From Leptospiraceae bacterium (GTDB lineage Bacteria; Spirochaetota; Leptospiria; Leptospirales; Leptonemataceae): a DNA stretch of 64,000 nucleotides. The stretch covers positions 192,001 through 256,000 of the forward strand of contig JAVJNR010000003.1 in assembly GCA_040217195.1 (NCBI GenBank). Direction: 5' to 3'. A program made the position numbers and the translations under genes. Below the pieces are notes generated by a model. It ran no database searches and was not told where the DNA came from. It saw only the letters and a program-made list of their open reading frames with translations. Below are positions 9,093 to 36,747 of this stretch, piece after piece. How positions within the stretch are numbered: position 1 is the first letter of the stretch; each line of letters starts with the position of its first letter.

Positions 9093-9782
9093 ATGTCATC
9101 GCAACTATTTCTGTACGCTTTCTTCGCACTGAGTGCGGCCCATATCATTGGAGAGCTATTGCAGGACCCTATCCGTAAACGGATTCGCATGAGTACCAAA
9201 CCATTTCTAATGCCAGCTCTGATCGCATACAGTCTCTTGCATACAGATGAGCCAAACTGGTGGATTGTTGGAGGATTGCTATTGGGATGGGTTGGCGATG
9301 TAGTTTTGATGTATCCGAAAGTTGCCATAATGTTTCTCATTGGCCTGGCCTCTTTTCTCGTAGGTCATGGTCTCTATATCTATGCCTTCCTGGAATCCAC
9401 TGGTTTTCTGCAGAGTATGCCGGTATGGTTTATGGCCCTTTCAGCTGTATTCGCACTGGCAGCTGCAGCAATATTTGCCTACTTTAAGCCACATCTAACA
9501 GGCGAAAATGCTGACAAAAAGATTCCGGTGGCGCTTTACTCGGCAATAATCATGGCCATGAGCTACACTTCTCTGGCCATCTGGCTGAATGGCTCTGGCT
9601 CTGGAGTTTTCTTTGTGGCTCTTCCTTTCATCGGATCTCTATTCTTTATTGTTTCCGATGTCATTCTGGCAAAGCTGCTCTTTATCAAACCATTCAAATT
9701 CGATAAGGCCATCAACATGACTACCTACCTGGCCGGTCAATTCTTCATCGCGCAGGCGTATCTGCCCTATCCGTTTGGCTGA
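9093..9782 (+). CDS. Lysoplasmalogenase (YhhN/TMEM86) family, copy 1
   Basis: TKPFLMP, GDVVL, SFLVGH, FIVSD, TYLAGQ motifs. Confidence 0.9.
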   Translation: MSSQLFLYAFFALSAAHIIGELLQDPIRKRIRMSTKPFLMPALIAYSLLHTDEPNWWIVGGLLLGWVGDVVLMYPKVAIMFLIGLASFLVGHGLYIYAFLESTGFLQSMPVWFMALSAVFALAAAAIFAYFKPHLTGENADKKIPVALYSAIIMAMSYTSLAIWLNGSGSGVFFVALPFIGSLFFIVSDVILAKLLFIKPFKFDKAINMTTYLAGQFFIAQAYLPYPFG

Positions 9783-9927
9783 TCCAGGAGTTGTGCTGGA
9801 ATTCTGGATTGATGGTCGGTAAAGAAAGAGCGGATTCAAACCGAAAAGTTACTGCCCCTTTCCAAATAAATTCCGGTGTAGATAGAACAGTAGTTGGCCT
9901 GCAGAATGCGTCATCCAATCTCATACC

Positions 9928-10617
9928 ATGTCATCCCAACTGTTTCTATATGTCTTTTTTGCTCTCAGTGCAATTCACGTAATAGGAGAGTTCCTGCAGG
10001 ACCCGCTTCGCAAGCGGATTCGCATAAGTACCAAGCCATTGCTTATGCCGGCTTTGATCGCCTATAACCTATTACATACCAGTGATCCAAACTGGTGGAT
10101 TGTGGGCGGATTGCTCCTTGGTTGGGTGGGCGATGTAGTTCTAATGTTTCCCAGGATTGCCATAATGTTTCTCATTGGCCTGGCATCCTTTCTGGTGGGT
10201 CATGCTCTATTCATCTATGCATTTTTAGAATCCACAGCGTATCTGCAAGGAATGCCAATCTGGTTCATGGGGCTGTCAGCCGTATTCGCTTTTGCCGCAG
10301 CCGCTTTCTTTACATACTTCAAACCACATCTTACAGGTGACAATGCAGATAAGAAGATTCCAGTGGCTCTCTATGCATCCATTATCGTGGCCATGAGTTA
10401 TACATCCCTGGCTATCTGGTTAAACGGATCCGGTTCGGGAATTTTCTTTGTAGCTCTGCCCTTCATAGGATCGCTATGCTTCATTGTATCCGATTTCCTG
10501 CTGGCCAATCAGCTTTTTATCAAGCCGTTTAAGTATGACCAGGCAATTATTATGCTAACCTATCTAGCAGCTCAGTATTCTATCGCACAGGGTTATCTGC
10601 CTTATCCATTTGGTTGA
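9928..10617 (+). CDS. Lysoplasmalogenase (YhhN/TMEM86) family, copy 2
   Basis: Same motifs; 229 aa and colinear with copy 1. Confidence 0.9.
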   Translation: MSSQLFLYVFFALSAIHVIGEFLQDPLRKRIRISTKPLLMPALIAYNLLHTSDPNWWIVGGLLLGWVGDVVLMFPRIAIMFLIGLASFLVGHALFIYAFLESTAYLQGMPIWFMGLSAVFAFAAAAFFTYFKPHLTGDNADKKIPVALYASIIVAMSYTSLAIWLNGSGSGIFFVALPFIGSLCFIVSDFLLANQLFIKPFKYDQAIIMLTYLAAQYSIAQGYLPYPFG

Positions 10618-21747: not shown

Positions 21748-22059
21748 ATGGGCTTGCGAACCCACCGTGATAAATACTACTTGCTGTTTTGTCTTTTGAT
21801 CCTTCTGGGACTCTACAGATATTATTTCCCGAATCACTCGGAAGAATCCCACATTCCACCTTCCGCAGAGTATAGCATAAACTTTCATAGAGAGGCAGAG
21901 TTCATTGTACCGCCAGGCCCTGCCCGATCGGTGAATGCCACGGGTCAGATGCGTGCACTATTAAGCGAAGAATTGAATCGCCAGGATTTGTACAATCGTT
22001 TCCCGGACAACAAATCTGCATCCGATTCCAGGAGTACGGAGTTTTTTGGATGCAATTAG
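21748..22059 (+). CDS. Small single-TM hypothetical protein, first gene of the vWA-tubulin operon
   Basis: YLLFCLLILLGLY TM segment; overlaps the next gene by 10 nt; TTGACA upstream at 21712. Confidence 0.5.
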   Translation: MGLRTHRDKYYLLFCLLILLGLYRYYFPNHSEESHIPPSAEYSINFHREAEFIVPPGPARSVNATGQMRALLSEELNRQDLYNRFPDNKSASDSRSTEFFGCN

Positions 22060-24137
22060 TCAGTTGCCGAATCTTTAACCGGCTAATCTTATTAAAGCTC
22101 GTTCCAGTTGTTCTACTGCTACTCTCCAGTGCAATTCTGGCCAAACCGGACAAATCTAGAAGTAAAGGTCATTTCGTATCGGTTGTGCTTGTTCTGGACA
22201 TTTCCGGCTCCATGTCTGTAAACGATCCTGATCGACTGAGCTGGGACGCAGCAAATCTAATGGCGAATCTTCTGAGCCAGGGGGATGAAATTGGCCTGGT
22301 GCTTTTTAATCATGAAGTAGTAAGCACTCTTGGTCCTCTGCGAATTGGCCAGGATAATATCAGTAGAGATACAATCAAAGAAAGGCTTTCCGGGCGATAC
22401 AATGGCGGTACGGATATTCTTGGTGCCGTAAACAAAGGCATGGATATGCTGGGAAATGTACAATCGTCGCCCAGACGAAAGAAGGCAATACTGGTTCTCA
22501 CGGACGGCGCAGATCAGAGCTCACTGGACTCCTATAGAGCTGCCCATCTAAGATCTCTGAACCAGGGAATTACGATTTTTCCTGTTGCAATGGGAACCGA
22601 GCCCAGCAAAGAAAAATTGCTGGCACTTACCGACGAATCAGAACTATTGCAGGCCAATCAGCCCCAGGAATTACCGGATACATTTTCTATTATCTACGCT
22701 CGCCTATTCGACTCCATGATTTCGCGACCGCAGGGCACTGGAACAGGCTTTGTTTTTCAGGCCCATCCGCTTACCGCTGAAATGAACCTCATCCTTTCGG
22801 ACGATGATCCAGGCAGCTTGAACTTTACCGTTTATGATCCAGCTGGAAAGGCCCTGTCGAGCAACGAGGCCAGACACGGAAAGAAGTTCATTTCGCTTCA
22901 GATCGTTTCACCCACTCCGGGAGAGTGGAAAGTTCAAACCACAAGAATCCCGGACAATATGAGTTTGCTCCAGATTGCAGACCTGAAGCTAGAAGTGAAA
23001 TGGGGAGATGTTAGCCCACTGAAGAAAACAATAACCGTGGACCAGGCCAGATTGCTTACAGAAAACGGCACTCGGATCCTGGACGAAGAGCGGTACTATC
23101 GAGGCACAAGGTTCGAACTGGTGGTGCGGGGCCCTGGTGGAGAGAAAACATATGAACTAAGAGACGATGGTCAGGGAGCGGATCGCCAGGCCAACGATCG
23201 GATTTTTGCAGGCACTGGAAAGATCGATGGAATTGGCCAGTACAGCTATTATGTAAGAGTTCACTTTCCTGTCTTTAAACCCACCTCCGAAAGGTACTTT
23301 CTGGCCCTCCAGGAGAAGGTCTGGTTCAGGCTAAAATGGCAAACCAATGCAGCCCCGGCGGTACAGCAGGGACAGATCCTGGGTCTGCCCATTCAAATAA
23401 CAGAAAACAAACCGGCCGATCCAGAGGGAGAAAACATCCATGTTCGACTACATCCAAAATCTGGGCCCGACTGGAACTCTATTGAGCTATTAAATACGGA
23501 ACTAAATGTTAAAGAACGTTCTCCGGGAACCGTGCGAATTCGTCCGGATTATTACCGCGGCATAGATCTTGGATTGTTTAGCGCAACACCCGGTACCTAC
23601 GAAGGCGAACTGGAGTTTTTCTATCCGGGTCAGGATAGCGTTCGCCTGCCAGTCAAATTCGAAGTAAGATCGGCCCCTTTTCTTGATAAATTGCTGGGAG
23701 CCCTTATATTCTGGTCTTGCATTGCGCTGGTGATCGCAATTCTAATGGGACTGCGAAAGGCTGTGTGGTTTCCAAGAAAAATGAGAATCTTCCTTTGGGA
23801 TGAACATGGACAGAGAAAGCGCAGCAGCGATATCCTGCCCCGAAGCAAGTGGCTCTATGGAAAAAGCAGCCTTCAAATTGGCTCAGCCACTCTGTTCTCC
23901 CGAGGACATAAAAGCACCAATCATGATCTATATTACGAGGAAGACGGTATCCGGCAGAGAGAGCCGGTAGGAAAGCACCAAATCATACTCACACCCGCCG
24001 GCGGTTATGTGGTGGTGAGCGATGGTTACTTGAGCTTTGATCAGGAAATGAATCTGGGAGATCAAATCGGCCGGACTTATCGGCGAAGCCCCCTATCCCC
24101 GGAAGAAGAAGTCAGAATAATAGAAAGCGAATTCTAA
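22050..24137 (+). CDS. Exported, C-terminally membrane-anchored vWA domain protein
   Basis: Signal peptide; MIDAS DISGS, GGTD, LTDG; beta-rich middle including LRDDGQGADRQANDRIFAG; TM LLGALIFWSCIALVIAILMGL; basic tail. Confidence 0.9.
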   Translation: MQLVSCRIFNRLILLKLVPVVLLLLSSAILAKPDKSRSKGHFVSVVLVLDISGSMSVNDPDRLSWDAANLMANLLSQGDEIGLVLFNHEVVSTLGPLRIGQDNISRDTIKERLSGRYNGGTDILGAVNKGMDMLGNVQSSPRRKKAILVLTDGADQSSLDSYRAAHLRSLNQGITIFPVAMGTEPSKEKLLALTDESELLQANQPQELPDTFSIIYARLFDSMISRPQGTGTGFVFQAHPLTAEMNLILSDDDPGSLNFTVYDPAGKALSSNEARHGKKFISLQIVSPTPGEWKVQTTRIPDNMSLLQIADLKLEVKWGDVSPLKKTITVDQARLLTENGTRILDEERYYRGTRFELVVRGPGGEKTYELRDDGQGADRQANDRIFAGTGKIDGIGQYSYYVRVHFPVFKPTSERYFLALQEKVWFRLKWQTNAAPAVQQGQILGLPIQITENKPADPEGENIHVRLHPKSGPDWNSIELLNTELNVKERSPGTVRIRPDYYRGIDLGLFSATPGTYEGELEFFYPGQDSVRLPVKFEVRSAPFLDKLLGALIFWSCIALVIAILMGLRKAVWFPRKMRIFLWDEHGQRKRSSDILPRSKWLYGKSSLQIGSATLFSRGHKSTNHDLYYEEDGIRQREPVGKHQIILTPAGGYVVVSDGYLSFDQEMNLGDQIGRTYRRSPLSPEEEVRIIESEF

Positions 24138-24214
24138 GAAGCTTTCCATTCAGGACCTTGCTCGCATGGAAACACTGGATGCAATAATTGGATTCGCATA
24201 ACATTGAGGAAGAA

Positions 24215-27200
24215 ATGGCAAAAGAAATCGAAAGTTTTACACCACATTTAGTACTGGGAATTGGAGGAACCGGAAGTCGAGTGCTGCAGCGACTTATGGA
24301 GCTCACCTCAGCGCAGAAAGACCGAGTCAAGGCACTGCAAAAAAACAGGCTTCTAAATTTTGTTGCTATTGATACGGACGTAAACGATCTTCAGAAGCTT
24401 GGATTGCCGCGGCAGAATCAAATTCTCATCTCTGAAGGTGTGAATATGCCGGTCTACGCTGGCACCCGAAAAAGAGAAGATGAGTTAAGACCACTGGATG
24501 AACGTACTTTTCGCTGGTTTCCTCCCAGAGATGAGGTGGGCACATCGTTTGAAACACATAACCTGGGAAACGGGGCTGGCCAAATTCGATTCTACTCCAG
24601 GATCGGATGGGAATATACATGCCAGAATATGAATCTGGAAAGCCAGTTTGAAAACCTGCTGGGTAGCCTGATCAGTATCGACGTGAACAAGACTGTTCTT
24701 TCCGAAAGTCCAACCATTATTGCAACCATAGTTGGATCCATTGCAGGAGGAACCGGCTCAGGGGTCTTCTTACAGGTCGCCGCCATGCTGAAAGATATCG
24801 CGGCCAGGAAATTGAAAAGACAGCTTCTGGTCAAAGGCTACTTCTTTACTGCTGATATCTATACGCGGGGAGGCCTACTGCCAGAAGAGCAGCATGATGA
24901 CATAAAGGCCAATACCTATGCCTGCCTGAAAGATCTAAATGCTTTTAATCGATTACTAACTCGCATCAATCGACCAATTCTGTTCGATGAAGGGGACCTG
25001 GATTTTATCTGGAACCCAAGGGATGGTCGCCGGGATCTGAGCACAATTATGTACCGTCCATACGATATGGTGTATATTGTAGATGCTACAAATAGCACCG
25101 GCACATTACCGGTGGGACCCGGCATAGAGTTTCGCGCCTATGAGTCCATGCTTGCTGATGCACTTTACTGCTCCATATTCACTCCAATTTCATCCAAAGC
25201 GCTGAGCATAGAGAACAATGAAATAATAAACAAGATTGCTGCAGAACAATCCGGAGATGACTTCCCCGGGTATGGAGCGGTAGGTGCTGCAAGAGTCGTA
25301 TTTCCGGTGGATGATGTTTCAGATTTCCTTAGCTACAAGTATTGTCAGAGTATTCTGAGTTCCCAGTGGGCACGACTGGATCGAAGCCATCAGGAAAACC
25401 TGGTGGAATTCAATCGAGCCCAGGACCAGGGACGGTATAACGTCAAGATGCCTGAAAGACATCAGGACTTTATTCGAGACTTTGAATCCGAAGTGGCCCG
25501 GGGCGATGAAGCGGATCCCTCAATCGTAGCCGCATCCAACCATTACAAATATCTCACAGGTACGGAGCATTCCGGAGGTATACCTCATGGCGCTGATCTA
25601 AAATCCGTTCTGGAGCAATCCGCATTTGTTCGCGCCCTGGACGAAGAAATAGAACATCGAATCCTGGGGCATTTCCATACGGACAGTCATAACGTAATTT
25701 CTGAAAAGGGATTCTCCAGAACCATGATTCGAGATTACAATACTGTGGGTATCCTGCAACAGGACCGAAATCATCAGGTAGAATATTTGCGAGGACTGTT
25801 GCACAACAATGATCGCCACCTAAATGCAATCAAGCAGACGATACGCGACCTTGAAGCCACCCTGGCCCGCCAAATAGTGAGAGACTGTCTAGATGATGAT
25901 GCCTCCGCGAGAACTTCTGAGCGAATGGATCAGCTCAAAGATTATCAGCTTATTCGATGGCTAACTCTCGACCCCACAAAGAAGGGGCATAACATATTCT
26001 TTATACGATACTTCCTTTCCAGAGAACTGGAAAGTCTGCGAGCGGCACTGGAATCCCTGAAGAAAGAACGACATTCCCTGGAAAGAAAGTTTCAACGAAA
26101 TTCTAGAGCCTTTGATGATCCATCGACCGAAGACATTGTAGAAACTCCACTCCAGTTGCTGGAACAGAACATGGCCGGCTCCGGCATCAATGGAGTGATG
26201 CAGAAATTTCATGATGTGGTTACTTTTCGAAATAACTTTGTTCATGGTATGGTTTCGGGTACCGGAGAATGGAGTCAGGATCTGGACACCTGGATGAAGG
26301 ATAGATTGCGTCTGGAGCTAGAAGCGTTTGCCGTTGATATAAAAATGCAGGTTTATGAAGCTCTGTTCAAGCGCCTGGGGTTTGATCAACTGGGAAGTCA
26401 GGGTGGATTGCTGGATGTAGTCCACAGGCTGGCAGATACAATCATTTCAATCAGCGAATTATTCGAACGAAATGTTGAAAACAAAAGACAACGAAATTTA
26501 CAGGGCGGTAAGCTTGCAGGCGCTGTTCTTGTACATTGTCAGCCAGAGTCCAAAGATTACATATGGAAATCTGTGGGCGGAGAATTGAGAAGTGCCAATT
26601 CCGTTCTCGTGGATACTTACCAGGGATTGATCAACTTCTGCGAGACTACCTGGAGAGATATTCAAAGCATTTCCGCACCCAGCCCGGAAGTTGAAAAGCA
26701 AAGGATTTCTTCTATCTATCAGAGATCTTTCCGATTGAATGCATATGACGAAACTGATCCGGGACCAGTATTTGAAAAGTTAATCCAGCCATCCAGGAAA
26801 TTTCTGGAGGCAGCCTTGCGAAAGAAATACAATGTATTGAGCGCCATGCTGGAAGAGGCAGAATATGTGAGGGGAGTTTCCTTTGCAGACACCGATGAGA
26901 AAATGCAGTACCTGGCCGAGCAACTGGGCATAGCGTTTTCCAATGCTGCACCGTTTACGAATGTGTTCAAGGATGCAACTCCCATAAATGTTATCGCATA
27001 CAATCATGGGCTAATTGATAGCGGAATGCATGAAATTCTGGAGAAGTTTGGTGGAGATCGCAGTGTTTCGCAGGGAGGAAGTATCGATGATCCCAATGTG
27101 GTCATCTTCTACCGTACAATGGTAGGCCAGAAGATGTCTGAATTCAGAAATGTATTGGAGTTCCGACGATACTATGTGGATTCAGTGATCAATCGACATA

Positions 27201-27739
27201 TCCATCGTGAATGGCCGGATCTCTTGCCAGAGCTTTCCGATGAAATTGAGCTGGAGCATTTTAAAACCTTCGCTTTCTGCGAAGCGGCCGGTATCATTCA
27301 ATGTGCAGATGCGGATCGCGGAGAATATCAGTATGATCTTGCATTCAGGGACCCGTCCCATCAGGAATGGCGGCCTCTGGGCTCAAGCTACCGTAATTCA
27401 CTCGTTGGTCTGAGGCACATGATTCGAAAGCACTCCGAATTTCGTAATGCTATCTCAGACCAGGAAAGCAAAGAACGATCCAGGTATGATCGCCGTTCCA
27501 GTTTTGACTTCGCAGATAAACTATTCCATCTAATGGATAGCTTTCAGTCCAGAGCCAGCAGCATCAAAGATGGTCTGGATGATAAGAGCATTACGCCGCA
27601 TATCCTGGAGAGACTGGCCGAGGCCTGTTCGGAAATTGTGGTTGAGATGGTTTCTGGCACTGAAGTCGAATTCCAGGAGGCCAGAAAGGGAGCCAGAGAG
27701 CGAAAACCTGGAAATGGATCTCAAGTAGTCGGACGATAG
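24215..27739 (+). CDS. FtsZ/tubulin-like GTPase (Tubulin_2 / FtsZl1 type) with long helical C-terminus
   Basis: GIGGTG, AIDTD, GAGQIR, GSIAGGTGSG signature, ANTYACLKDL; GAGGA RBS before ATG 24215. Confidence 0.9.
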   Translation: MAKEIESFTPHLVLGIGGTGSRVLQRLMELTSAQKDRVKALQKNRLLNFVAIDTDVNDLQKLGLPRQNQILISEGVNMPVYAGTRKREDELRPLDERTFRWFPPRDEVGTSFETHNLGNGAGQIRFYSRIGWEYTCQNMNLESQFENLLGSLISIDVNKTVLSESPTIIATIVGSIAGGTGSGVFLQVAAMLKDIAARKLKRQLLVKGYFFTADIYTRGGLLPEEQHDDIKANTYACLKDLNAFNRLLTRINRPILFDEGDLDFIWNPRDGRRDLSTIMYRPYDMVYIVDATNSTGTLPVGPGIEFRAYESMLADALYCSIFTPISSKALSIENNEIINKIAAEQSGDDFPGYGAVGAARVVFPVDDVSDFLSYKYCQSILSSQWARLDRSHQENLVEFNRAQDQGRYNVKMPERHQDFIRDFESEVARGDEADPSIVAASNHYKYLTGTEHSGGIPHGADLKSVLEQSAFVRALDEEIEHRILGHFHTDSHNVISEKGFSRTMIRDYNTVGILQQDRNHQVEYLRGLLHNNDRHLNAIKQTIRDLEATLARQIVRDCLDDDASARTSERMDQLKDYQLIRWLTLDPTKKGHNIFFIRYFLSRELESLRAALESLKKERHSLERKFQRNSRAFDDPSTEDIVETPLQLLEQNMAGSGINGVMQKFHDVVTFRNNFVHGMVSGTGEWSQDLDTWMKDRLRLELEAFAVDIKMQVYEALFKRLGFDQLGSQGGLLDVVHRLADTIISISELFERNVENKRQRNLQGGKLAGAVLVHCQPESKDYIWKSVGGELRSANSVLVDTYQGLINFCETTWRDIQSISAPSPEVEKQRISSIYQRSFRLNAYDETDPGPVFEKLIQPSRKFLEAALRKKYNVLSAMLEEAEYVRGVSFADTDEKMQYLAEQLGIAFSNAAPFTNVFKDATPINVIAYNHGLIDSGMHEILEKFGGDRSVSQGGSIDDPNVVIFYRTMVGQKMSEFRNVLEFRRYYVDSVINRHIHREWPDLLPELSDEIELEHFKTFAFCEAAGIIQCADADRGEYQYDLAFRDPSHQEWRPLGSSYRNSLVGLRHMIRKHSEFRNAISDQESKERSRYDRRSSFDFADKLFHLMDSFQSRASSIKDGLDDKSITPHILERLAEACSEIVVEMVSGTEVEFQEARKGARERKPGNGSQVVGR

Positions 27740-27740
27740 G

Positions 27741-30404
27741 ATGGCTTCCAAGGTTTCCAGCCTGGTACTTCAGATTGGCCATCAAATCCAGCGGTTGAAC
27801 GAAGACCTGCAGGATGAATTGTCAACCGAAGACCGAATTCGATTTCTGCGAGCAGAATTAAGGTCTTTGAATAAGGGGCAGACAATCCTGCGCCTGTCCG
27901 GTAATAGTGATTCCGGAGTTCATGAGGTGGACCCTGCAAACCAGGCTGGGATTTATCAGGAGCAACCGCTCTTAGATCCTATCTATACATGCCTACTGGA
28001 TGAGATTCAGGCATTGCTGCAATTCGAGCCAGGCGATCATATGAATCGTCAGGTCCGAATCATTGTGCATGGCTCATTAACGGCTGCAGAAGACCGTAGC
28101 TGTTTTCTGAAGATTCTGCAATACCTGGCAGTGGTTCTCAAGAGCTTTTCTGCAAATGTCATTCGTCTGGTTCCGGTCATTCCATTCGCCAGCCGAAACG
28201 ATGCACAATTTTTCGCAAACCTGAGAGCCCTGGATGAAAGGTTCCGGGAAATGGAGCAAATCTACAGGTATGGCTCTGCGACTCCACCGGAGCTCCATGG
28301 TAGCCATTATCCACCCTATTTAAAGAGAGTAATTCTGATCTCGGATGACCTGGGGGGTCAGATCATGAACTCTGATGAACAGTCTTCGCTCTTATTCTTA
28401 ACTCTGCGACTTCTATGCGAACCGGGTGGATTCGTAAACAGATATAGAATCTATAGAGATGATGATACCCAATCAGATAGTCTGGAGAAATGGCTTCAGG
28501 TGGACGATCTTCTGAGTCCTGTGGGTGAAGTAGTTGATCCCTGGTCCGGTCCATATAGCTCTATTGGTTTTATTCACTATGGCATAGATGTAAAAAGAAT
28601 TAATCGAGTGATGAAGCTCTACCTGTATCATCTACTTATTGAAAAGCTGGCCCAGCCCGAGCTCATAGAAGGAGAATACGTTTTTCAGAATGCGGACAAT
28701 GAACTAGAACAATTAATACTGCGCCAAATGCAGGGTCAGGTCCATCCGGGTAGCCTGGAAATCATGAACCAGGAGGAATGTAGCGAAGCCTGGAACGAGC
28801 TGGTCCGAATTCAGAGCGTTAGCAAAGAATCGAAAAAGCTTTCCCTGGACCAGCCTGCATTGAAAGAGCTTGCCCGAAGCCTGCGAAAAGCCGGCCAGAA
28901 TGAACAAAAAGGATCCACACAATCAGATGTTATTGCTGTAATCGATGACCTCCAATCCACACTGGACCGACAGCTACCAGACTATGAGGATCTGGGTGCC
29001 CAGTTCTCAGATCTTTATCGGCGTGTGGCCCGGATTGTAGATCAGAAGGCTGTGCATTTTGCCAGTCAGATCAAAAGAAGATTCAGCCTGGTTGTGGAAT
29101 CTATTGCAAATTATTCTGAAGTGAATGAATCCGATTCTACATTGCATCAGGCAAGGCAGCTTAGCGAATATTTCAAGGAAAGCAGTGAAAAATCCATTCT
29201 CTCTCGTTGGCGCGGTCTGTCTTATGTATTGCAAAGAGCTTACAGAGAGCTTGTGACCCATCGCCAGAACATTCATCATCTTAGACTGACTCGCAGCAGA
29301 CTGGCCCCGGTGGAACACCTGCAGGAATCCGAGAATGGATTTCGCAGTAAATTGCAGGAAATTCGAAAAAGAGCCCTGAAACTCGGAAATGCCAGGTTCA
29401 GCCTGCTAATACCAGCTCTTCTGGGAACAATACTTGGTCTGACTGGATTAATTATACATTCCTCCCCTTTCGCTCCAGTAAGCGTTAGACTACCTTTTCA
29501 TCTACTTCATACAGCCATTGATCTAATTCTTCCAGATTCCATGCGAAATGCCACATTCTTCGCAGGACAGGCATCCCTCACTCTACCTGGAGCAATCTTC
29601 TGGGGCATTTTCATAGGAGCTGGTTTTCTATCCGCATACCTGCTTCGTCGCCATCAGTCCAGCAAGGCAACCCATCTCCAGGAGGAAGTAAATGAAGCCC
29701 TGAATTCCTATCTACAATCTCTGAAGATTCGGCCGGACCAGATCTTAGAGTCTCAGGCCTATTTCCGAGAAGGAAGATTTCTGCAGGAATATGCCAACCT
29801 CATTCGCCGCACACTTTTTCATTTTCATTCCTATGATCATGCATCCGGACAGGTGGCTCGCAGAATTCGACATGAATTGTTAATTCGTGGAGCCAGGCTA
29901 GAAGGAAAGAAGCTTCGCTTTGATGCAAACCATTTGCGACAGACCACAATAGAGTCCGACATGGTGGATCGATTCGAAATCAGTCTGCTCAAATCCCGGG
30001 AACTGGAAAGAATGGCAGACCGAATTCTGGAAAGGGATTTAACCGGAGAACTTCTGGCCGCACTTCAGGTCTTTTCCTGCGAAGAAAACCAGGAAGATAT
30101 AATGGATCGCAAATTGGATGAGTTGCTGCTACGCGATCTACCGCTCCATGAAGTTGAACGGATAATTTCACAACATGTAGAAGATTCAGCTTCCGAGAGC
30201 CTAAAGCAGGCAGCCACAGGCAAGAGACCCTTCTGGGCTCTATCTCTGAATCCAGAAAACTACACTGGCGGCGCTTTTGTGCGCAAAACCTTTCAGGGGG
30301 ACCGCAATTTCGGTGAAATGTTTCATCTGTTCTATGTTCGGCGAGGATTCTCCCTGGAAGAACTGGAACGGACCATCCGCTCCGCAAGTCAGGAGGCGCT
30401 TTGA
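27741..30404 (+). CDS. Degenerate tubulin-like paralogue with coiled coils and two TM segments
   Basis: N-terminal blocks colinear with the upstream tubulin but the Gly-rich loops are lost; TM segments near aa 550-635. Confidence 0.65.
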   Translation: MASKVSSLVLQIGHQIQRLNEDLQDELSTEDRIRFLRAELRSLNKGQTILRLSGNSDSGVHEVDPANQAGIYQEQPLLDPIYTCLLDEIQALLQFEPGDHMNRQVRIIVHGSLTAAEDRSCFLKILQYLAVVLKSFSANVIRLVPVIPFASRNDAQFFANLRALDERFREMEQIYRYGSATPPELHGSHYPPYLKRVILISDDLGGQIMNSDEQSSLLFLTLRLLCEPGGFVNRYRIYRDDDTQSDSLEKWLQVDDLLSPVGEVVDPWSGPYSSIGFIHYGIDVKRINRVMKLYLYHLLIEKLAQPELIEGEYVFQNADNELEQLILRQMQGQVHPGSLEIMNQEECSEAWNELVRIQSVSKESKKLSLDQPALKELARSLRKAGQNEQKGSTQSDVIAVIDDLQSTLDRQLPDYEDLGAQFSDLYRRVARIVDQKAVHFASQIKRRFSLVVESIANYSEVNESDSTLHQARQLSEYFKESSEKSILSRWRGLSYVLQRAYRELVTHRQNIHHLRLTRSRLAPVEHLQESENGFRSKLQEIRKRALKLGNARFSLLIPALLGTILGLTGLIIHSSPFAPVSVRLPFHLLHTAIDLILPDSMRNATFFAGQASLTLPGAIFWGIFIGAGFLSAYLLRRHQSSKATHLQEEVNEALNSYLQSLKIRPDQILESQAYFREGRFLQEYANLIRRTLFHFHSYDHASGQVARRIRHELLIRGARLEGKKLRFDANHLRQTTIESDMVDRFEISLLKSRELERMADRILERDLTGELLAALQVFSCEENQEDIMDRKLDELLLRDLPLHEVERIISQHVEDSASESLKQAATGKRPFWALSLNPENYTGGAFVRKTFQGDRNFGEMFHLFYVRRGFSLEELERTIRSASQEAL

Positions 30405-33400
30405 TGGGTTTTCTGGACGGCATCCTTTCGCTTGCCTATTTCTTTTTTGTATTGTTTCTACTGATGCATGGTATTCAGAATCTCAAAGAGTGCTATGCCG
30501 CTCTTAAGAGATATCGCTCGGGCAAGAAAGTACAATATGAAAAATCCCTCCAGCACCTGGCTCCCGGTGCGGGCGCTGTATTTGCTGGAATCCTTACTTT
30601 CTTTATTCTCTCTGTACCTGCACTGATAGAAACATTGTTCTATGCAGACAGCAATTCCATTCTATTTCGCACGGCAACTGCTCTGGCCTTTGAATATGAA
30701 TTACTGGGAAGCATTTTCTCGGCTGCAGGCGCTCCGGCCACTCCCGATGCCGTAGCTCAGATCATTCTGGACATTATTCCTGTCCATTTCTGGCAGCTAA
30801 TTCTCTTTCTCATCGGATATTTCGCATATCGAATTCTAACCTCCCAATTCTCTCGCATGTTTCAAGAGCCATCCGCTTTGATGCGATCAAGGCTGCCCGT
30901 AGATTTTGAGAATTCAGATCCAGAAACTCCACCCGTACTTTCGCCCTATACTTCCTTTGTATCCGGATCCATTTTTTTCTTTATTGGTGCAGGTATGCTG
31001 CTATTCCCATCTGCAGAGATGCAGTATGAGATTATTAGCGGCCGCGACATGGGTGGCTTCCTCTCTGTAATTCACGATCTCCAGGCTTTCATTCTACTCA
31101 GCAGTCAGTCCAATCATCATGTATTTCAGAATTCACATATTGCCGATTTTTTGCCCTGCATTCTGGCGCTGGTAGGTATGGGTATTCTGGAATTCACCGC
31201 CAGAGGATTATCAGAAAAATCCCGGCCGCCCTATACCGGAAATCAATCTGGAATTCATCTGGCTTTTAAGCGAAATCAGTTCGATTTCCTGGAAGATTTG
31301 CAGAAGAAAATTGGTCAGGTGCAGCCGCTGTTCGAAAATAATCCAACGTCCGGCGGTCGTAGCCCGCGAATAGAAGAAATAGATAGGGGGGCGCTGAAAA
31401 GGACTGTAGCAGAAACTCATGAGGAGTATCGCTTTGAAACTCTGGAAACCGAAAATCCGTTCTGGAGCGATATTCTGGAAAGACTGAACGTTGATCGTCT
31501 GTACACAACTCAATGGGAAGTAATCCAGAAAACAGCCACCGGTCAGAAAGTAGTCCTTTCAATGGAACCTGGTTCGGGCAAAATGCTTTCTGTTTTTCTG
31601 TCTGCCATGTACCAGGTAGTGCAAAAATTTCAGTCCGTACTGATCCTGGTTCCAGATGATAGCATTGCCGATGAAATCAAAGCCAGGTATTATGCGAAAA
31701 TCCAGGATTTACACTGGATGCAGGGATTATCCTTGCAGATTCTTACAAGCGATGAGGACAGAAGAGACACCGGCCATGTAACTGCCCTGGCCATGCAGGA
31801 ACTGCCCAGCGAAAGGCAGCCAGACATTATTCTTGCAACTCCCGATAGGCTTCATGGACTATTGAAAACCAGAGCCAGAGCACGGGATTTTATTCAGAAT
31901 CTGGGATTTGTAGCCATTGTTGAGGGTTCTTTGCATGGACATGTTCAGTCTCTACATACAGCTATGGTGCTGCGAAGATTCTTCACCATGGTTCGTCTGG
32001 TATTTCGCGGCCGGTACGGCGCCCGCTGGATGGGCGAAGATGGATTTCCTGAACTGGGGGTTCTGGTTACTCTGGAAAACTGTTCCAACGCAGATGCTTT
32101 TGCATCATTTTTGACCGGCCTGGATTTTTTGCCGGCCAATGTAATTTCTGCCTCACAGGCCCCCGTTCGACCCAAGAACGTTTACACCATCAAAGTAGAT
32201 TCAAGAAAAACAGGACAAACTCCCGGCCCACTGGCCATTTTTGATGCAGCCATGCAAAATCAGCAAGTTCCTCTTTTACTGCTTGGGTACGGCGAAAGAC
32301 TGATTCTGGCAGATAAGATTCGAATCGCTAGATACATTGAACAAAATTCAGGACAGGCTCGTTCAGATGTTCTAAAATCAATGTTTCTTGAATCTGAGCT
32401 GGTGAGGGGCCGCGAAAATGAAGGCTTCCTGGAGAATTCCTGGCAGCTGCTGGAATCCAGAGTCGCTGTTGTCGACCCTACCCATGATCCCGGAAAGTCC
32501 ATGTCCTTAATATCATCTATGGGTCTTTTTGCTGCGGGAGAGGCACCTCTGATTCTAATACCAATATACCTGGAAATGGATCGCATTCGGGCCCGCAGAC
32601 TGATGTCAGATGCAGGTCTATGGTCCGGATCCGGTTCCAGTTCGCCGCAACTGATCATCCCTGAATTCGATTCCAGGACTCTGCCTATATTGAAGTCCCA
32701 TTTGCATTGCCTGTTTGAAGAAATGGATCGTAGTTTTCTAAAAGGATACTCCGAGCCAGATCTTTTATCTCTCTTTGGTGGAGGTTTGAATCAGCGAATG
32801 GCTGATTTGATCCATCTGAGCATCCAGGAAATGGTTGCGGCCTGGAAAATTCGACCTCAGGAAAATGAAGAGCATATATCCTACGAAGCTGTTTCCACCC
32901 TGGAGGATATATATGATTTTTCATTCGACACTGTATCGCAAAGATCAGCAGTAAATGTCACTGTATTAAATACAACTAAAGTCAAGCATCTGGAATCGTT
33001 TGACCTTGAGTTCAAATATCCACCAGGTTCGGTAGTGCTATTCGACGGTAAGCGACGTCGCTTGCTCCAGGCTTCAGAAAAAGAAAATGCGGAAAATTAC
33101 GCTACTGGTTCCTCTGCTGCCGTTATGCTGGGCGCCGAGCATGAGACCTTCTACTCCAGAACAAAAATTCAGCTACTGACCGATTTCTGGAAACATTATC
33201 AGCAGAACCAATCGGACTACCAGGTTGAAAGCAGGTTCGTAGCGGCCGGAGACAAGACCATTTCGGTGCAATTCATCCGTCCAGATGGGCCGGGGACGCC
33301 CCTATCTTCGGAAATAATGGACAGCCCCCGGAATTCGCAATGCCTGGAAGTGGAATGGAGTGCAGGCGAGCTGGAGTATCGAGATGCCATTACGGATCGC

Positions 33401-33961
33401 ATTATTAGCCGCACCGATGTGCGAACCGAGAGGTCCGAGTCTGCCGGAAAATTAATTCTTAGCCCGGATGAGATTCTACACGTACTGATCTCTTCTGATG
33501 AATTCGATTCTGACAGTCCTGCACCGGAACAAGAAAATTCCGACGAAGAAACAGAAAGCACCGGCTCGGAACAATCATCTGAACCGATGACTGTACCAAA
33601 CGAAGTCATCGATTTATTCGACCTGGAATTCAAGAAGGGAATCGCTCTTCTAGTTTCCAATCATGAAGATTTGCTTGAGACCAGGGTACAAATCGGTTCA
33701 GGAATCTTTCTAACTCTAATTCATAAGCCTGTGTTTAGCAGCAACTTGCTCTCAATCATTGAGTCCGATCTCTGCGGCGAGAATCTTCATGGAACGTCCA
33801 GAATACTCACAGGTCTTGCAGAAAACACCACACTGCTGGAACACTTCACTTTCCTGAAAAAGTTCAGAATACCATTTCAAACCAGGGAAGCCCCGGCTTC
33901 GAATGTGCCGCAACTACTGGACGAAAACTGGGAAGATATTGCTTCGGAGGAGCATTTATGA
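30404..33961 (+). CDS. Multi-pass membrane protein fused to a degenerate YprA/Hrq1-like SF2 helicase
   Basis: About 5 N-terminal TMs; RLYTTQ, PGSGKM, PDIILATPDRLH, VAIVEGS, AMVLRR, LKSHLHC; TGATG overlap with the upstream gene. Confidence 0.75.
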   Translation: MGFLDGILSLAYFFFVLFLLMHGIQNLKECYAALKRYRSGKKVQYEKSLQHLAPGAGAVFAGILTFFILSVPALIETLFYADSNSILFRTATALAFEYELLGSIFSAAGAPATPDAVAQIILDIIPVHFWQLILFLIGYFAYRILTSQFSRMFQEPSALMRSRLPVDFENSDPETPPVLSPYTSFVSGSIFFFIGAGMLLFPSAEMQYEIISGRDMGGFLSVIHDLQAFILLSSQSNHHVFQNSHIADFLPCILALVGMGILEFTARGLSEKSRPPYTGNQSGIHLAFKRNQFDFLEDLQKKIGQVQPLFENNPTSGGRSPRIEEIDRGALKRTVAETHEEYRFETLETENPFWSDILERLNVDRLYTTQWEVIQKTATGQKVVLSMEPGSGKMLSVFLSAMYQVVQKFQSVLILVPDDSIADEIKARYYAKIQDLHWMQGLSLQILTSDEDRRDTGHVTALAMQELPSERQPDIILATPDRLHGLLKTRARARDFIQNLGFVAIVEGSLHGHVQSLHTAMVLRRFFTMVRLVFRGRYGARWMGEDGFPELGVLVTLENCSNADAFASFLTGLDFLPANVISASQAPVRPKNVYTIKVDSRKTGQTPGPLAIFDAAMQNQQVPLLLLGYGERLILADKIRIARYIEQNSGQARSDVLKSMFLESELVRGRENEGFLENSWQLLESRVAVVDPTHDPGKSMSLISSMGLFAAGEAPLILIPIYLEMDRIRARRLMSDAGLWSGSGSSSPQLIIPEFDSRTLPILKSHLHCLFEEMDRSFLKGYSEPDLLSLFGGGLNQRMADLIHLSIQEMVAAWKIRPQENEEHISYEAVSTLEDIYDFSFDTVSQRSAVNVTVLNTTKVKHLESFDLEFKYPPGSVVLFDGKRRRLLQASEKENAENYATGSSAAVMLGAEHETFYSRTKIQLLTDFWKHYQQNQSDYQVESRFVAAGDKTISVQFIRPDGPGTPLSSEIMDSPRNSQCLEVEWSAGELEYRDAITDRIISRTDVRTERSESAGKLILSPDEILHVLISSDEFDSDSPAPEQENSDEETESTGSEQSSEPMTVPNEVIDLFDLEFKKGIALLVSNHEDLLETRVQIGSGIFLTLIHKPVFSSNLLSIIESDLCGENLHGTSRILTGLAENTTLLEHFTFLKKFRIPFQTREAPASNVPQLLDENWEDIASEEHL

Positions 33962-35007
33962 AACGTTCGGAAGCCTCCCATCCGGCCCATTTGCAGAGGG
34001 ACTCCAATGAAAGGTACAGAGCAGATCTTTCCAGGGATTTTGTAAATATCAAGATCCATCGCCCGGAAATAAAACGAAGATCCTCCCAGCCTGCGTTTCT
34101 GGACCATCCGCTGCTGCGATGGGCATTCAAGAAGGTTCTGACCACCGCGGAAAGCCAGATTTCTGTGGAGTACTGCTATCGTTGTGAAGTACTTCTCGAA
34201 GGCGACACTTCCAGACTGGAGCCGCCCCTGCTATGCGAACCATGCGGCCAGGAGGTGTTCAGTCACCATTCCACCGAGGATGGAATGCAACCCGGGGATT
34301 CTCGGTCTAAGAACCCTCGAATCAGACCCTCCCATGACTTTCTAAATCGGTATTCTATTATTGAAAGCACAGGTGTGGATCCAGTTCGAGCGTCTGGAGT
34401 TCGTCTGCCAGAGCAAGTGGGCTCGAATTCCTCCGAAGTTCCATTTTGTATCTTTACAGGGAAATTCATAGGAGAAGAAAGCTTTCTAGTAGGCCCATTT
34501 AAAGCGCCAGCCTCGGTGGCTCGAAGATTGCTCCGCGGCCAGATAGATGAACTGGATGAGATCGCAAATGGAATGATTCTTCCTTTTCTTTCGCTTTACA
34601 ATCTTCATCCAGGGCAGATGCAGCTGGAGATTCACTGGGGCAGCCGGATCAGTAAAAACGCAGCAAGCCATCCAAGGTATCAAAAATTCGCCTATGTTAT
34701 CAATCCAGGGCTTCGAATACTGAAAATCGAAATCGATCTGTCCGATGGAGCACCGAATTACTATGAATTCATGCTTGCTCTAGTATCTCTGATTGGATGT
34801 TTTTGCAATGATAAAGAAATTGATCGCTACGGGGATCCTTCCAGCAACGATTTATTGATCTATCTTGAAGCGGAGCTTGTTTTTGCATTCAGCGCCAACA
34901 CAAAGAGTATGGAGCGATACGCTAAACAATTCCTACCCAAACACAGGCGTAACCGAATTAGAGACACCTACATGGAAGCCATTCGCAGCCGAAGGCCTCG
35001 CTCCTGA
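33958..35007 (+). CDS. Hypothetical protein with CxxC...CxxC Zn-ribbon, last gene of the operon
   Basis: CYRC and CEPC pairs; ATGA overlap with the upstream gene. Confidence 0.7.
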   Translation: MKRSEASHPAHLQRDSNERYRADLSRDFVNIKIHRPEIKRRSSQPAFLDHPLLRWAFKKVLTTAESQISVEYCYRCEVLLEGDTSRLEPPLLCEPCGQEVFSHHSTEDGMQPGDSRSKNPRIRPSHDFLNRYSIIESTGVDPVRASGVRLPEQVGSNSSEVPFCIFTGKFIGEESFLVGPFKAPASVARRLLRGQIDELDEIANGMILPFLSLYNLHPGQMQLEIHWGSRISKNAASHPRYQKFAYVINPGLRILKIEIDLSDGAPNYYEFMLALVSLIGCFCNDKEIDRYGDPSSNDLLIYLEAELVFAFSANTKSMERYAKQFLPKHRRNRIRDTYMEAIRSRRPRS

Positions 35008-35201
35008 TAGGCCAGGTTCTGCTTCGCCCGGTGGGTTTAGTCTCTGAATACCCCTATTAAGCTTCCGGGTGCGAAAGCCCCCGCATCTAGCTTATAATTC
35101 TGGATTCTGGTTACCAGCATTCCACCGCTTCCTGGAAGCCCCCGGAAGGTAATATTTGCAGCTCCGGGTGAATTTCAATAAACCTTTTTTATGGTTGCCG
35201 G

Positions 35202-35954
35202 ATGCTACGAACCTGCACTGGATGCATTATGCGAGCCGTGGATAATAGAAGGAACGGCAACCTGCATTATGGCGCTTCGAGAGCAGGCTATATTGCTGGA
35301 TTGACCAGCACTATTCTGTTACTGTCTATCTTCACCGGAAACTGCTTTCTGCATCCCATAAGTGGTACCGGACCATCCCAGGAACTCTTTGGCCTTTCTG
35401 ATGAGCAGTCCAATGAAAAGCTTTTTGCAGCACTCCTGGCTAGCTTGGCCAACCTGGACGCCAGTTCTGCAACTCACATCACACTTTATAATGCAGGAAC
35501 CACCGATGGAGATATGGGAGGCCTGAGCGGTGCCAACGCCATTTGTAATGCGTCCTCCAACAAACCAGAAGGAACCACTGGAGTGGCCTTCCTATCCACA
35601 TCGAGCCAGGCTTTATTGTTACTCCCTGGTGTTCCATTGGACCTACCAGTTCAGGGACCCAACGGATTACCTCTTGCCACAGATTGGTTCGACCTCTTCG
35701 GTTTTGAACAGACAATTTTGAACACCCTGGGCGATGCAGAGGTTTTACCCTTTGCCTCCAATGAGTTTTACTCGGGCACTGCTCCAGATGGATTTCCGGA
35801 GCCTGGATATACCTGTGATGACTGGAACAGCTCTGACAGCCGTTCGTTCTTTGCCACAGTGGGAATTGGAGATGAAACTTCTGATTTCTGGATTTCCCAC
35901 ACGGATCCTCCCGGCTGTAATGCGATTCTCTATCTACTCTGTGCAGCCTGGTAA
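35202..35954 (+). CDS. DUF1554 (endostatin-like, Len-type) lipoprotein, copy 1 (start uncertain)
   Basis: GDMGGLSGANAIC, AFLST, DWFDLF, TCDDW, terminal LCAAW. Confidence 0.75.
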   Translation: MLRTCTGCIMRAVDNRRNGNLHYGASRAGYIAGLTSTILLLSIFTGNCFLHPISGTGPSQELFGLSDEQSNEKLFAALLASLANLDASSATHITLYNAGTTDGDMGGLSGANAICNASSNKPEGTTGVAFLSTSSQALLLLPGVPLDLPVQGPNGLPLATDWFDLFGFEQTILNTLGDAEVLPFASNEFYSGTAPDGFPEPGYTCDDWNSSDSRSFFATVGIGDETSDFWISHTDPPGCNAILYLLCAAW

Positions 35955-36045
35955 TTTCCAGGCGCGGATTTGCTGGGCGGACCGCCCGGAATATTTTATT
36001 GTTTTTTTTTATTGATATATTTCCCTACCATATCCATTTTTCTGT

Positions 36046-36747
36046 ATGCTCGATGGGAGAAATCTCCAAAAGCTGATTTCCCGGATCAGAAACCAGCTCA
36101 CTTGCCTCTGGATTCTCTTTCCCCTGATATTAACCACAGCCTGCGTTTTGCATCCGGCTACCGGCACCGAACCATCCAGGGAACTTTTTGGGCTGAATGA
36201 CTCAAGGCCGGAAGATGCTTTGTTGATCTCAGGCTTAATCATGGGACTGGATGCGGCGCCTGCTACCCCGCAAATCATGCTCTACGCTGCTGGCAGTATG
36301 GATGGTGGCATGGGAGGTATCCAGAATGCTAACGGTTTCTGCCAGAGCTCCCCCAGCCAGCCGCCAGGCACTATGAGCAAGGCATTCCTTTCCACCTCGG
36401 ACCAGGACTTGATCAGTTTGCCAGGGGTCCCTGCGGATCTGGCTGTACGGGGGCCGAACGGTTCGTTGATAGCTGATAACTGGTCTGATCTATTTGGAAC
36501 TGGCGAATCAATCGAGAATTCTATGTACGATGCAGGCGTATTGCCCTTCCCCTCAAGTACATTCTATACAGGAACCGATGTCAATGGACAATCCAGTAAC
36601 TTGAATACCTGCCTTGACTGGAACAGCCCATCCCTTCAAGATACCGGAGCAGTAGGCATTGCCAACCTGACTGCGGAGAATTGGATCAACGGAGGCGCGC
36701 CCATGGAATGCGCCTATTCCCATTCTATCCTGTGCGCAGCCTGGTAA
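36046..36747 (+). CDS. DUF1554 (endostatin-like, Len-type) lipoprotein, copy 2
   Basis: GGMGGIQNANGFC, AFLST, NWSDLF, TCLDW, LCAAW; lipobox LTTAC. Confidence 0.75.
   Translation: MLDGRNLQKLISRIRNQLTCLWILFPLILTTACVLHPATGTEPSRELFGLNDSRPEDALLISGLIMGLDAAPATPQIMLYAAGSMDGGMGGIQNANGFCQSSPSQPPGTMSKAFLSTSDQDLISLPGVPADLAVRGPNGSLIADNWSDLFGTGESIENSMYDAGVLPFPSSTFYTGTDVNGQSSNLNTCLDWNSPSLQDTGAVGIANLTAENWINGGAPMECAYSHSILCAAW

Follow-up and report, generated by a model that had tools for sequence, protein, structure and literature searches.

Helicases of the MrfA/YprA family (DUF1998, COG1205; PDB 6ZNP, 6ZNQ and 6ZNS; yeast Hrq1) belong to a lineage known for DNA repair and antiphage defense, and they are central to several defense systems, among them DISARM (DrmA/B), Druantia (DruE), ARMADA, BRIGADE and TALON (PMC12458937). 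FtsZl1-vWA operons, in which a vWA gene is followed by FtsZl1 and by genes for membrane proteins of unknown function, were predicted by Makarova and Koonin in 2010 (PMC2875224), and FtsZl1 proteins have had no assigned function since then. Tubulin and membrane vWA genes also occur together in the GAP1-N2 conflict systems of Kaur et al. 2020, which are patchily distributed operons with a predicted action near the membrane (PMC7159879). Here, we describe a gene that connects these subjects. It lies at 30404..33961 on the plus strand of a 64,000-nucleotide stretch of a Leptospiraceae bacterium (GenBank assembly GCA_040217195.1, contig JAVJNR010000003.1, positions 192,001 to 256,000; the window), and it encodes a membrane-anchored pseudo-helicase of the MrfA/YprA type with 1185 amino acids (aa) counted from the ATG.

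The window protein has its best sequence and structure match in MrfA/YprA, with which it shares the predicted tandem RecA fold with an N-terminal arm, the family blocks (H..LRR, HxxC and YP..G), the Q-motif and the P-loop. In contrast to MrfA/YprA, it carries four to five membrane segments ahead of the helicase body, has no mrfB neighbor, and lacks the DExH, SAT, motif VI and single-stranded DNA (ssDNA) motifs; the window copy also lacks the zinc ligands. Being derived from MrfA/YprA and failing the catalytic tests of that family, it is a pseudo-enzyme derivative. The motif loss extends to its close and distant homologs, the gene evolves under purifying selection, and it is one component of an FtsZl1-vWA cassette, a context that the initial annotation of this DNA had missed.

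The class of FtsZl1-vWA operons was thus published in 2010, and we found no description of a dead-helicase component. The word helicase does not occur in the main text or the six supplements of PMC2875224, and tubulin, transmembrane and vWA are likewise absent from the accessible text of the YprA survey by Bell et al. 2025 (PMC12458937). A literature search, with subscription papers mostly beyond its coverage, returned no description of a helicase part in the FtsZl1-vWA combination.

A helicase body with a predicted MrfA fold behind a membrane anchor

The reading frame is open from a TTG at 30401 or the ATG at 30404 to a stop at 33961. The ATG shares bases with the stop codon of the upstream gene (TGATG), and the stop of the pseudo-helicase overlaps the next start (ATGA). 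The protein contains the blocks RLYTTQ (31496, aa 365), GSGKM (31571, aa 390), LVPDDSIA (31646), TPDRLH (31838) and VEGS (31919), followed by AMVLRR (31961), (T)LEN (32069), FASFLTG (32099), LKSHLHC (32690) and YPPGSVVLFDG (33017); every block named in the initial annotation is present where it had been placed. The Pfam DEAD model aligns with aa 370-506 (E 3e-9), the NCBIfam DECH helicase model gives the same value (3e-9), and the closest solved relative is Bacillus subtilis YprA/MrfA (E 5e-5 with the single sequence, 5e-29 with a family profile). Consequently, the similarity to helicases is beyond chance.

The N-terminal membrane anchor (30410..31195, plus strand) comprises five hydrophobic segments between aa 3 and 264 (aa 3-21, 57-75, 120-138, 183-201 and 246-264), in agreement with the multi-spanning N-terminus first proposed. 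These segments come from a hydropathy scan (19-residue window, mean >=1.6), which is not a topology predictor and which, at the same threshold, yields one peak in soluble MrfA, so false positives occur; the scan also gave a marginal peak at aa 701-719 of the pseudo-helicase. Four to five such segments are present in all 16 homologs with a full N-terminus. Because loops 1 and 5 are rich in Lys/Arg and loops 2 and 4 are acidic, the anchor is predicted to be N-out/C-in, which would place the helicase body in the cytoplasm.

A fold model from the single sequence had a mean predicted local distance difference test score (pLDDT) of 37 and was set aside. We therefore rely on a model built on a 25-row alignment of membrane-anchored homologs, from which active helicases were excluded. 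In this model, pLDDT is mostly 70-85 across aa 289-312 and 352-745, where two RecA domains are visible, and below 50 in the anchor and past aa 770, where the model is unreliable. RecA1 occupies 31457..32158 (aa 352-585; pLDDT mostly 70-85). RecA2 occupies 32159..32638 (aa 586-745), both on the plus strand; in RecA2 the fold is kept in the model, motifs IV, V and VI are unconserved, the arginine finger is absent and G707 is kept. The four best Foldseek matches are MrfA structures (E 1e-14 to 3e-13). A second structure aligner superposed aa 289-806 of the model on residues 3-462 of MrfA (6ZNP; Z 22.5, root-mean-square deviation 4.1 over 407 residues), and the next structural matches, Brr2, Pol theta and Hel308, have Z of about 18. 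When the dead set was aligned to active MrfA, profile against profile and in global mode, the probability was 100 and E 4.5e-53 over 677 columns, with most of the confidence lying in RecA1 and the HxxC and YP..G blocks. In the Atlas, the neighbors of aa 335-930 are DEAD, Helicase_C and WHD_HRQ1 clusters (0.95-0.96). Together, these comparisons place the modeled protein in the tandem RecA fold of the MrfA type, the fold on which the initial annotation had staked its helicase assignment.

The C-terminal part (32672..33958, plus strand) starts with a putative winged helix, continues with a beta-rich region and an acidic linker that evolves fast (aa 1029-1066), and ends in an MZB/DUF1998-like segment that lacks the zinc ligands. 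The global profile alignment spans the winged-helix/OB/MZB region, and relatives match PF09369 there; the window protein has no Pfam match in this region, and its winged-helix-OB-MZB layout is a putative assignment made from sequence only. The six cysteines of the protein are scattered and form no Cys4 cluster, as had been noted. Of the 16 homologs whose sequence extends to the C-terminus, seven retain the MZB zinc cysteines, so the loss of the ligands is lineage-specific.

Catalytic and DNA-binding motifs are lost and the nucleotide pocket is kept across the family

We counted motifs in 19 aligned membrane-anchored homologs, of which 18 reach motif VI. In the window protein, Walker A reads GSGKM, with Met (M394) in place of the Thr, and this Thr, which follows the Walker A Lys/Arg, is lost in 16 of the 19 and present in three. 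Motif II reads IVEGS. Its first Asp has become V506, as the reported change from DEAH to VEGS implied, but an acid (E507) survives at the position of the catalytic Glu. Across the family, the first Asp of Walker B is never kept (0/19), DExH is missing from all 19, motif II is mostly Pro-Asp, and Arg replaces the Walker A Lys in 10/19. Motif III, SAT in active enzymes and TLEN here, is complete in no homolog, with both the Ser and the Thr at 0/19. Motif VI (QxxGRxGR) occurs in 0/18, and the Arg following the Gly in one; it had been called unrecognizable in the window protein, and the motif is indeed gone, but its place can be aligned to aa 703-712 (ISSMGLFAAG), where Gly G707 is the sole kept residue. 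From these motifs, the protein is very probably dead as an ATPase.

Alternatively, the protein might be an ATPase of a slow or unusual kind whose arginine finger is supplied in trans by a partner. K393 and E507 are present, and an acid stands at position 507 in 18 of the 19, as such an enzyme would need. Nevertheless, neither Mg2+ ligand survives (Met replaces the Thr, and Val the Asp), motif III is lost as well, and the prevalence of Pro-Asp at motif II and of Arg for the Walker A Lys speaks against activity in the family as a whole, so that we consider completion in trans very unlikely.

The DNA-binding motifs have fared no better. MrfA holds ssDNA through motifs Ia/Ib/Ic and IV/IVa/V (PMC7797055). 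In motif Ia of the dead family, the Thr, Lys and Gln are each found in 0/19, and the window protein is acidic there (PDDSIADE). The Gly-Asp-Thr of motif Ib and the Thr and Asn of motif Ic are also at 0/19; TPDRLH, first listed as a retained motif Ib, keeps only half of it (TNPDMLH to ATPDRLH). Motifs IV and V are unrecognizable in the window protein, in a region where the alignment is less certain. The core has a net charge of -2, against +9 in the genome's own MrfA. Thus, it is likely that the pseudo-helicase does not take ssDNA into the usual groove.

The nucleotide pocket has a different history. Tyr/His367, Gln370, Ser/Thr391, Gly392 and Lys/Arg393 are each present in 19/19, and the window protein has Y367, Q370, S391-G392-K393 and E507. 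Between aa 340 and 760, 11 polar or aromatic positions are common to all four lineages of the family; five of them belong to the pocket and none to DNA binding, and deeply kept polar residues outside the pocket include R524, R525, T556 and D637. Y367, Q370 and K393 align with MrfA Y56, Q59 and K82. In the structure of MrfA with DNA and AMPPNP, Y56 and Q59 bind the adenine, K82 and R384 reach the gamma-phosphate, Mg2+ is not involved, and T83, D185, E186 and H188 are out of contact (PMC7797055). By alignment, the pseudo-helicase appears to retain the three RecA1 contacts of this Mg-free pose and to have lost the Mg2+ ligands and the RecA2 arginine. Because the RecA1 contacts are kept, we lean, by a small margin of confidence, towards a protein that binds nucleotide. 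The initial annotation had proposed a membrane-tethered pseudo-ATPase serving as binder or scaffold. This reading is supported, with the change that binding of nucleic acid is disfavored, since the residues that survive are those of the adenine/phosphate pocket and not those that contact ssDNA.

The same residues could also be read as purely structural, with the protein a rigid, membrane-anchored RecA platform that binds neither nucleotide nor nucleic acid and keeps the Q-motif and P-loop for folding. The loss of the motif VI Arg and of both Mg2+ ligands agrees with such a platform, as do the kept polar residues outside the pocket and a possible counterpart on an Azospirillum plasmid (described below) that seems to have no pocket. 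Homology of that counterpart is not significant, though, and a folding role accounts poorly for a pocket that holds five of the 11 deeply shared positions and for a position 393 that is only ever Lys or Arg, as contact with a phosphate predicts. We regard the inert platform as unlikely, but as the strongest competitor of a nucleotide-binding scaffold.

The pseudo-helicase is an old family under purifying selection

Two other genomes of this genus carry close orthologs (79% and 71% identity). A search of 1.84 billion representatives returned 13 matches. Apart from the cluster to which the protein itself belongs, they comprise six membrane-anchored proteins that are distant from it, three that resemble active MrfA, and three fragments of 258-356 aa (P0009, P0010 and P0012) that play no part in the analysis. 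A follow-up search added ten further homologs of the Myxococcota type, one of them from Polyangium aurulentum. The dead-helicase gene is present in 3 of the 190 genomes of the class, and the single additional match in 401 genomes of the phylum is an intact MrfA. A metagenome scan with the Myxococcota-type alignment gave 67 pattern matches and a scan of viral contigs 37, with no relative among either, and a plasmid scan with P0006 gave no match.

The window genome has, in addition, an intact MrfA of 772 aa, encoded on a different contig behind a gene that, by reading and not by a tool match, resembles mrfB. This raises the question of whether the window gene is a decaying duplicate of the genome's own mrfA with an accidental membrane segment. 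In a tree of RecA1 (41 rows), the dead copies fall on one side of a branch and active MrfA on the other (support 98/93), and a second tree without three long-branch rows (P0003, P0004 and L019) gives support of 100/96. The approximately unbiased test rejects a tree in which the three genus-level copies group with MrfA of their own genus (p-AU 0.03), a result to be read with the long branches and narrow outgroup in mind.

Compared with its ortholog in the genome G005, the gene shows 78% identity, with pN 0.134 and pS 0.719 for nonsynonymous and synonymous differences, and a ratio of nonsynonymous to synonymous substitution (dN/dS) of about 0.06 by the Nei-Gojobori method; dS is imprecise, as synonymous sites are near saturation in this comparison. 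A fragment in a second genome, G001, gives a dN/dS of 0.07. RecA1 is the most constrained part (92% identity, dN/dS about 0.03), and the membrane anchor (85%) and RecA2 (81%) are also well conserved. The C-terminal part evolves faster (61-69%), and the acidic linker serves as an internal control, with 25% identity and a dN/dS of about 0.8. All nine population variants listed in the open reading frame (ORF), the best-supported ones only, are synonymous. Contigs of four public sequencing runs, one of which may be the window's own sample, show no indel relative to the cassette. No RNA dataset appeared among the public runs listed.

Decay of an mrfA duplicate would explain the many substituted motifs and the faster C-terminal part. 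It does not explain the low dN/dS at nearly saturated synonymous sites, a reading frame that stays uninterrupted wherever the three genomes match, an architecture shared by 16 full-length homologs, or the tree test above, and we judge it extremely improbable. Neutral decay is excluded, and close and distant homologs share the motif loss under purifying selection. Of the two outcomes that the initial annotation had named as refuting it, the absence of a tandem RecA fold and neutral decay beside intact close homologs, neither was found.

The gene belongs to an FtsZl1-vWA cassette

The pseudo-helicase is the fifth of six tightly packed genes, all on the plus strand, that span about 13.3 kb. The first (21748..22059) is an ORF of 103 aa whose N-terminus is hydrophobic; the ortholog locus conserves it (L026:1355-1666), and the empty site described below lacks it. 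The second (22050..24137) encodes a 695-aa vWA protein (Pfam VWA, E 3e-11; NF041940) with an N-terminal hydrophobic segment, an intact DxSxS motif, a choice-of-anchor-X-like stretch, and a membrane segment at aa 548-566 followed by a short cytoplasmic tail. The third (24188..27739) encodes FtsZl1, a Tubulin_2 GTPase of 1183 aa (PF13809, E 3e-47) with intact GIGGTG and GGTGSG loops, and it is the best-conserved gene of the cassette, with 97% identity to its ortholog. The fourth (27741..30404) encodes a protein of 887 aa that matches no family and has two membrane segments arranged as a hairpin (aa 554-572 and 617-635). The last (33958..35007) encodes a 349-aa protein with a CxxC...CxxC arrangement (aa 73 and 93) and no HExxH, and it follows the helicase gene in the three of three genomes that carry it.

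With an FtsZl1 of 1183 aa carrying its GTP loop and long helical C-terminus, an adjacent vWA gene with DxSxS, and membrane proteins of 887 and 1185 aa, the cassette is an FtsZl1-vWA operon. It differs from the operons of PMC2875224, as far as these are described in the available text, in having no kinase, GTPase or OmpA gene. Two loci in that study are ordered vWA, FtsZl1, B5, B12, and B12 (RUMLAC_01526 / BACCAP_04121) is a membrane-associated Zn-finger/zincin protein of 1418-1435 aa (PMC2875224), which we compared by gene order and length only. The Zn finger and zincin are fused in B12, whereas in the window cassette the Cys4 part has a gene of its own and HExxH is missing from it; the 349-aa protein could still be a dead, split remnant of B12. 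The GAP1-N2 systems differ in turn, since the part of PMC7159879 available to us defines them by DO-GTPase, GAP1 and FNIII genes and describes no dead helicase; DO-GTPase, GAP1 and FNIII have no Pfam or NCBIfam match among the six cassette genes, with no search made using GAP1 models.

Two readings of the neighboring proteins found no support. The N-terminus of the 887-aa protein aligns with tubulin over 26 columns around the T4 loop (hhalign E 0.49), no better than a control region, and a degenerate second tubulin, as in twin-tubulin variants, is a possible but unsupported reading of it. The 349-aa protein was thought by eye to be a dead zincin, which is also unsupported, as it has no HExxH and no match to a DA1-like family at E<=10 (0/3 genomes). 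It has no Pfam, PHROG or useful PDB match, and its best Atlas neighbors, HNH_2 clusters at 0.87, are a lead only. A predicted complex between the 349-aa protein and aa 289-930 of the helicase scored 0.00 and is uninformative either way on binding.

Gene order is identical in G005, and G001 holds the same order in pieces. The congener G002 (94% complete) has an empty site, where the FAA-hydrolase and DUF1554-like genes that flank the cassette in the window lie next to each other, and no copy of the cassette was detected in this genome. The cassette may have been gained in one branch or lost from G002. The cassette genes have a GC content of 0.47-0.49 against 0.486 for the genome and hence give no sign of recent transfer. 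A scan for promoters and terminators found sites no more numerous than in shuffled sequence. At a more distant locus, L029, a P0004-type gene (26% identity) is preceded by the C-terminus of an FtsZl1 (E 8e-13) and by a homolog of the 887-aa protein (E 6e-5). In L029:722-4046, this 887-aa homolog is split over two overlapping frames (307 and 878 aa). We are highly confident that the pseudo-helicase works with the cassette.

Directly after the cassette, two tandem DUF1554/endostatin-like genes occupy 35202-36747, where G002 has a single one, and population variants cluster in 35129-35322.

Tubulin_2 genes are present in 30 of the 190 genomes of the class and are mostly of another type. The commonest type is exemplified by a second, unlinked Tubulin_2 gene (G000:C5, L034:12966-17750), which encodes a protein of 1275 aa whose GTPase domain carries a long insertion and which sits behind a gene for a 300-aa membrane protein, FHA-like by eye. 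In the genome G447 (L067:6285-15530), a Tubulin_2 gene is followed by a 1072-aa protein with HSP70-like motifs (by eye) and two unknown genes, a pairing reminiscent of the systems with tubulin and HSP70 to which PMC7159879 refers.

Plasmid FtsZl1 loci and a possible conflict role

Six plasmid loci matched FtsZl1, and four were opened. On the Azospirillum ramasamyi plasmid NZ_CP029832.1 (L080:14995-26600), FtsZl1 is followed by a 710-aa protein, an 1118-aa membrane protein in the slot that the pseudo-helicase takes in the window cassette, and a vWA-like protein of 897 aa, and a divergent vWA/TAXI-like operon lies beside them; the three genes after FtsZl1 are annotated as hypothetical. The 1118-aa protein was evaluated as a homolog of the pseudo-helicase and rejected, as its match to motifs Ia-II is not significant (E 0.078, with shuffles at 0.24-0.88 and the reversed sequence at 0.10). 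The locus is possibly a more eroded version of the window cassette. On a second Azospirillum plasmid, NZ_CP039644.1 (L083:8030-23066), FtsZl1 lies amid three caspase-family, three OmpA and two DUF4384 genes. On the Meiothermus plasmid NZ_CP021131.1 (L082:1-18395), a vWA-FtsZl1-unknown gene set is flanked by helicase-related, DUF1156, Swt1 HEPN and BrxL annotations.

The patchy, all-or-none distribution of the cassette suggests a role in stress or conflict rather than in housekeeping. The defense record of YprA helicases (PMC12458937), the tubulin-vWA conflict systems (PMC7159879) and the defense-like genes on the Meiothermus plasmid point in the same direction. On this evidence, we place a conflict role slightly short of an even chance. 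The YprA defense systems resemble the cassette in their helicase family and accessory distribution, and differ in that the systems described in the accessible text of PMC12458937 pair the helicase with methylases and nucleases, none of which is encoded in the window cassette.

If the cassette acts in conflict, the pseudo-helicase might be a membrane-tethered nucleic-acid sensor that recognizes, at the membrane, phage or plasmid DNA entering the cell and then sets off the tubulin-like protein, in the manner of the YprA helicases of DISARM, Druantia and ARMADA. The central place of YprA helicases in defense (PMC12458937), the accessory nature of the cassette (3/190 genomes, an empty site in a congener), the surviving MZB cysteines in 7/16 homologs and the Meiothermus neighborhood would all fit a sensor. 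The protein itself fits badly, as the invariant Ia/Ib/Ic residues are at 0/19, motif Ia is acidic, the core is not basic and the window copy has no zinc ligands. A sensor of this kind therefore seems quite improbable to us.

Proposed role of the pseudo-helicase

We put at about even the chance that the pseudo-helicase is a conserved, membrane-docked, probably nucleotide-binding scaffold or switch of the FtsZl1-vWA machine and not a DNA sensor. In our model, the body of an MrfA/YprA helicase would have been fused long ago to a membrane anchor of four to five helices, would have ceased to hydrolyze ATP and to grip ssDNA, and would have become a cytoplasmic, membrane-docked scaffold. The Q-motif and P-loop may still allow it to bind an adenine nucleotide in the absence of Mg2+, and whether this site is filled might control how far the two RecA domains open, as happens in the second, inactive cassette of Brr2. 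The vWA protein would sense something outside the inner membrane, FtsZl1 would assemble at the membrane on the 887-aa protein and the pseudo-helicase as a scaffold, and the trailing Cys4 protein of 349 aa would be cargo or a regulator. The inactive C-terminal cassette of Brr2, a double-RecA unit of superfamily 2 that binds adenine nucleotide tightly and acts allosterically (PMC8220420), is a functional analog only: it is eukaryotic, Ski2-like, soluble and fused to an active cassette, and its structural match to the model (Z about 18) indicates no special kinship.

Several points weigh against this scaffold or switch. The motif VI Arg that contacts the gamma-phosphate in MrfA appears to be gone, leaving the pocket incomplete, and the Q-motif and P-loop residues could persist for folding alone; nucleotide binding and the loss of activity are deduced from the primary structure. 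The 19 sequences behind the motif counts represent only four deep, independent lineages (3 + 1 + 1 + 14), Myxococcota included, and the cassette context was read outside the 14 Myxococcota-type proteins, which contribute sequence only. The database copy P0001 differs from the window protein by a few amino acids. Most FtsZl1 loci lack the pseudo-helicase gene, which was near none of the seven others inspected in the class, three of them on contigs shorter than 10 kb, and a scan of five cassette proteins with the PADLOC models gave no match. Lastly, the Azospirillum 1118-aa protein seems by eye to be without Q-motif and P-loop; were it homologous, the nucleotide pocket would be dispensable.

The proposed scaffold or switch makes defined predictions, namely no ATPase activity, no ssDNA binding, and binding of an adenine nucleotide for which Q370 and K393 are required. 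Should these hold, a bacterial helicase from a family of DNA-repair and antiphage enzymes would have been turned into a membrane-bound nucleotide switch. The cassette is compact and bounded by an empty site, and so it can be cloned and tested whole. A bolder extension, which we consider rather doubtful, is that membrane pseudo-helicases across phyla are Mg-independent sensors of ATP/ADP or of a nucleotide signal that control, on the cue of a vWA surface receptor, whether a tubulin-like polymer assembles at the inner membrane, forming a trans-envelope immune or contact-response machine. In that case, the switch of a cytoskeleton-based machine would be a retired DNA-repair and defense helicase.

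Other features of the window

Upstream of the cassette, a tandem pair of near-duplicate genes for 229-aa membrane proteins lies at 9093-10617. A HAMP/PP2C-like signaling gene at 6044-8175 appears to be split into two consecutive ORFs near 7198-7219, possibly by a frameshift (by eye).

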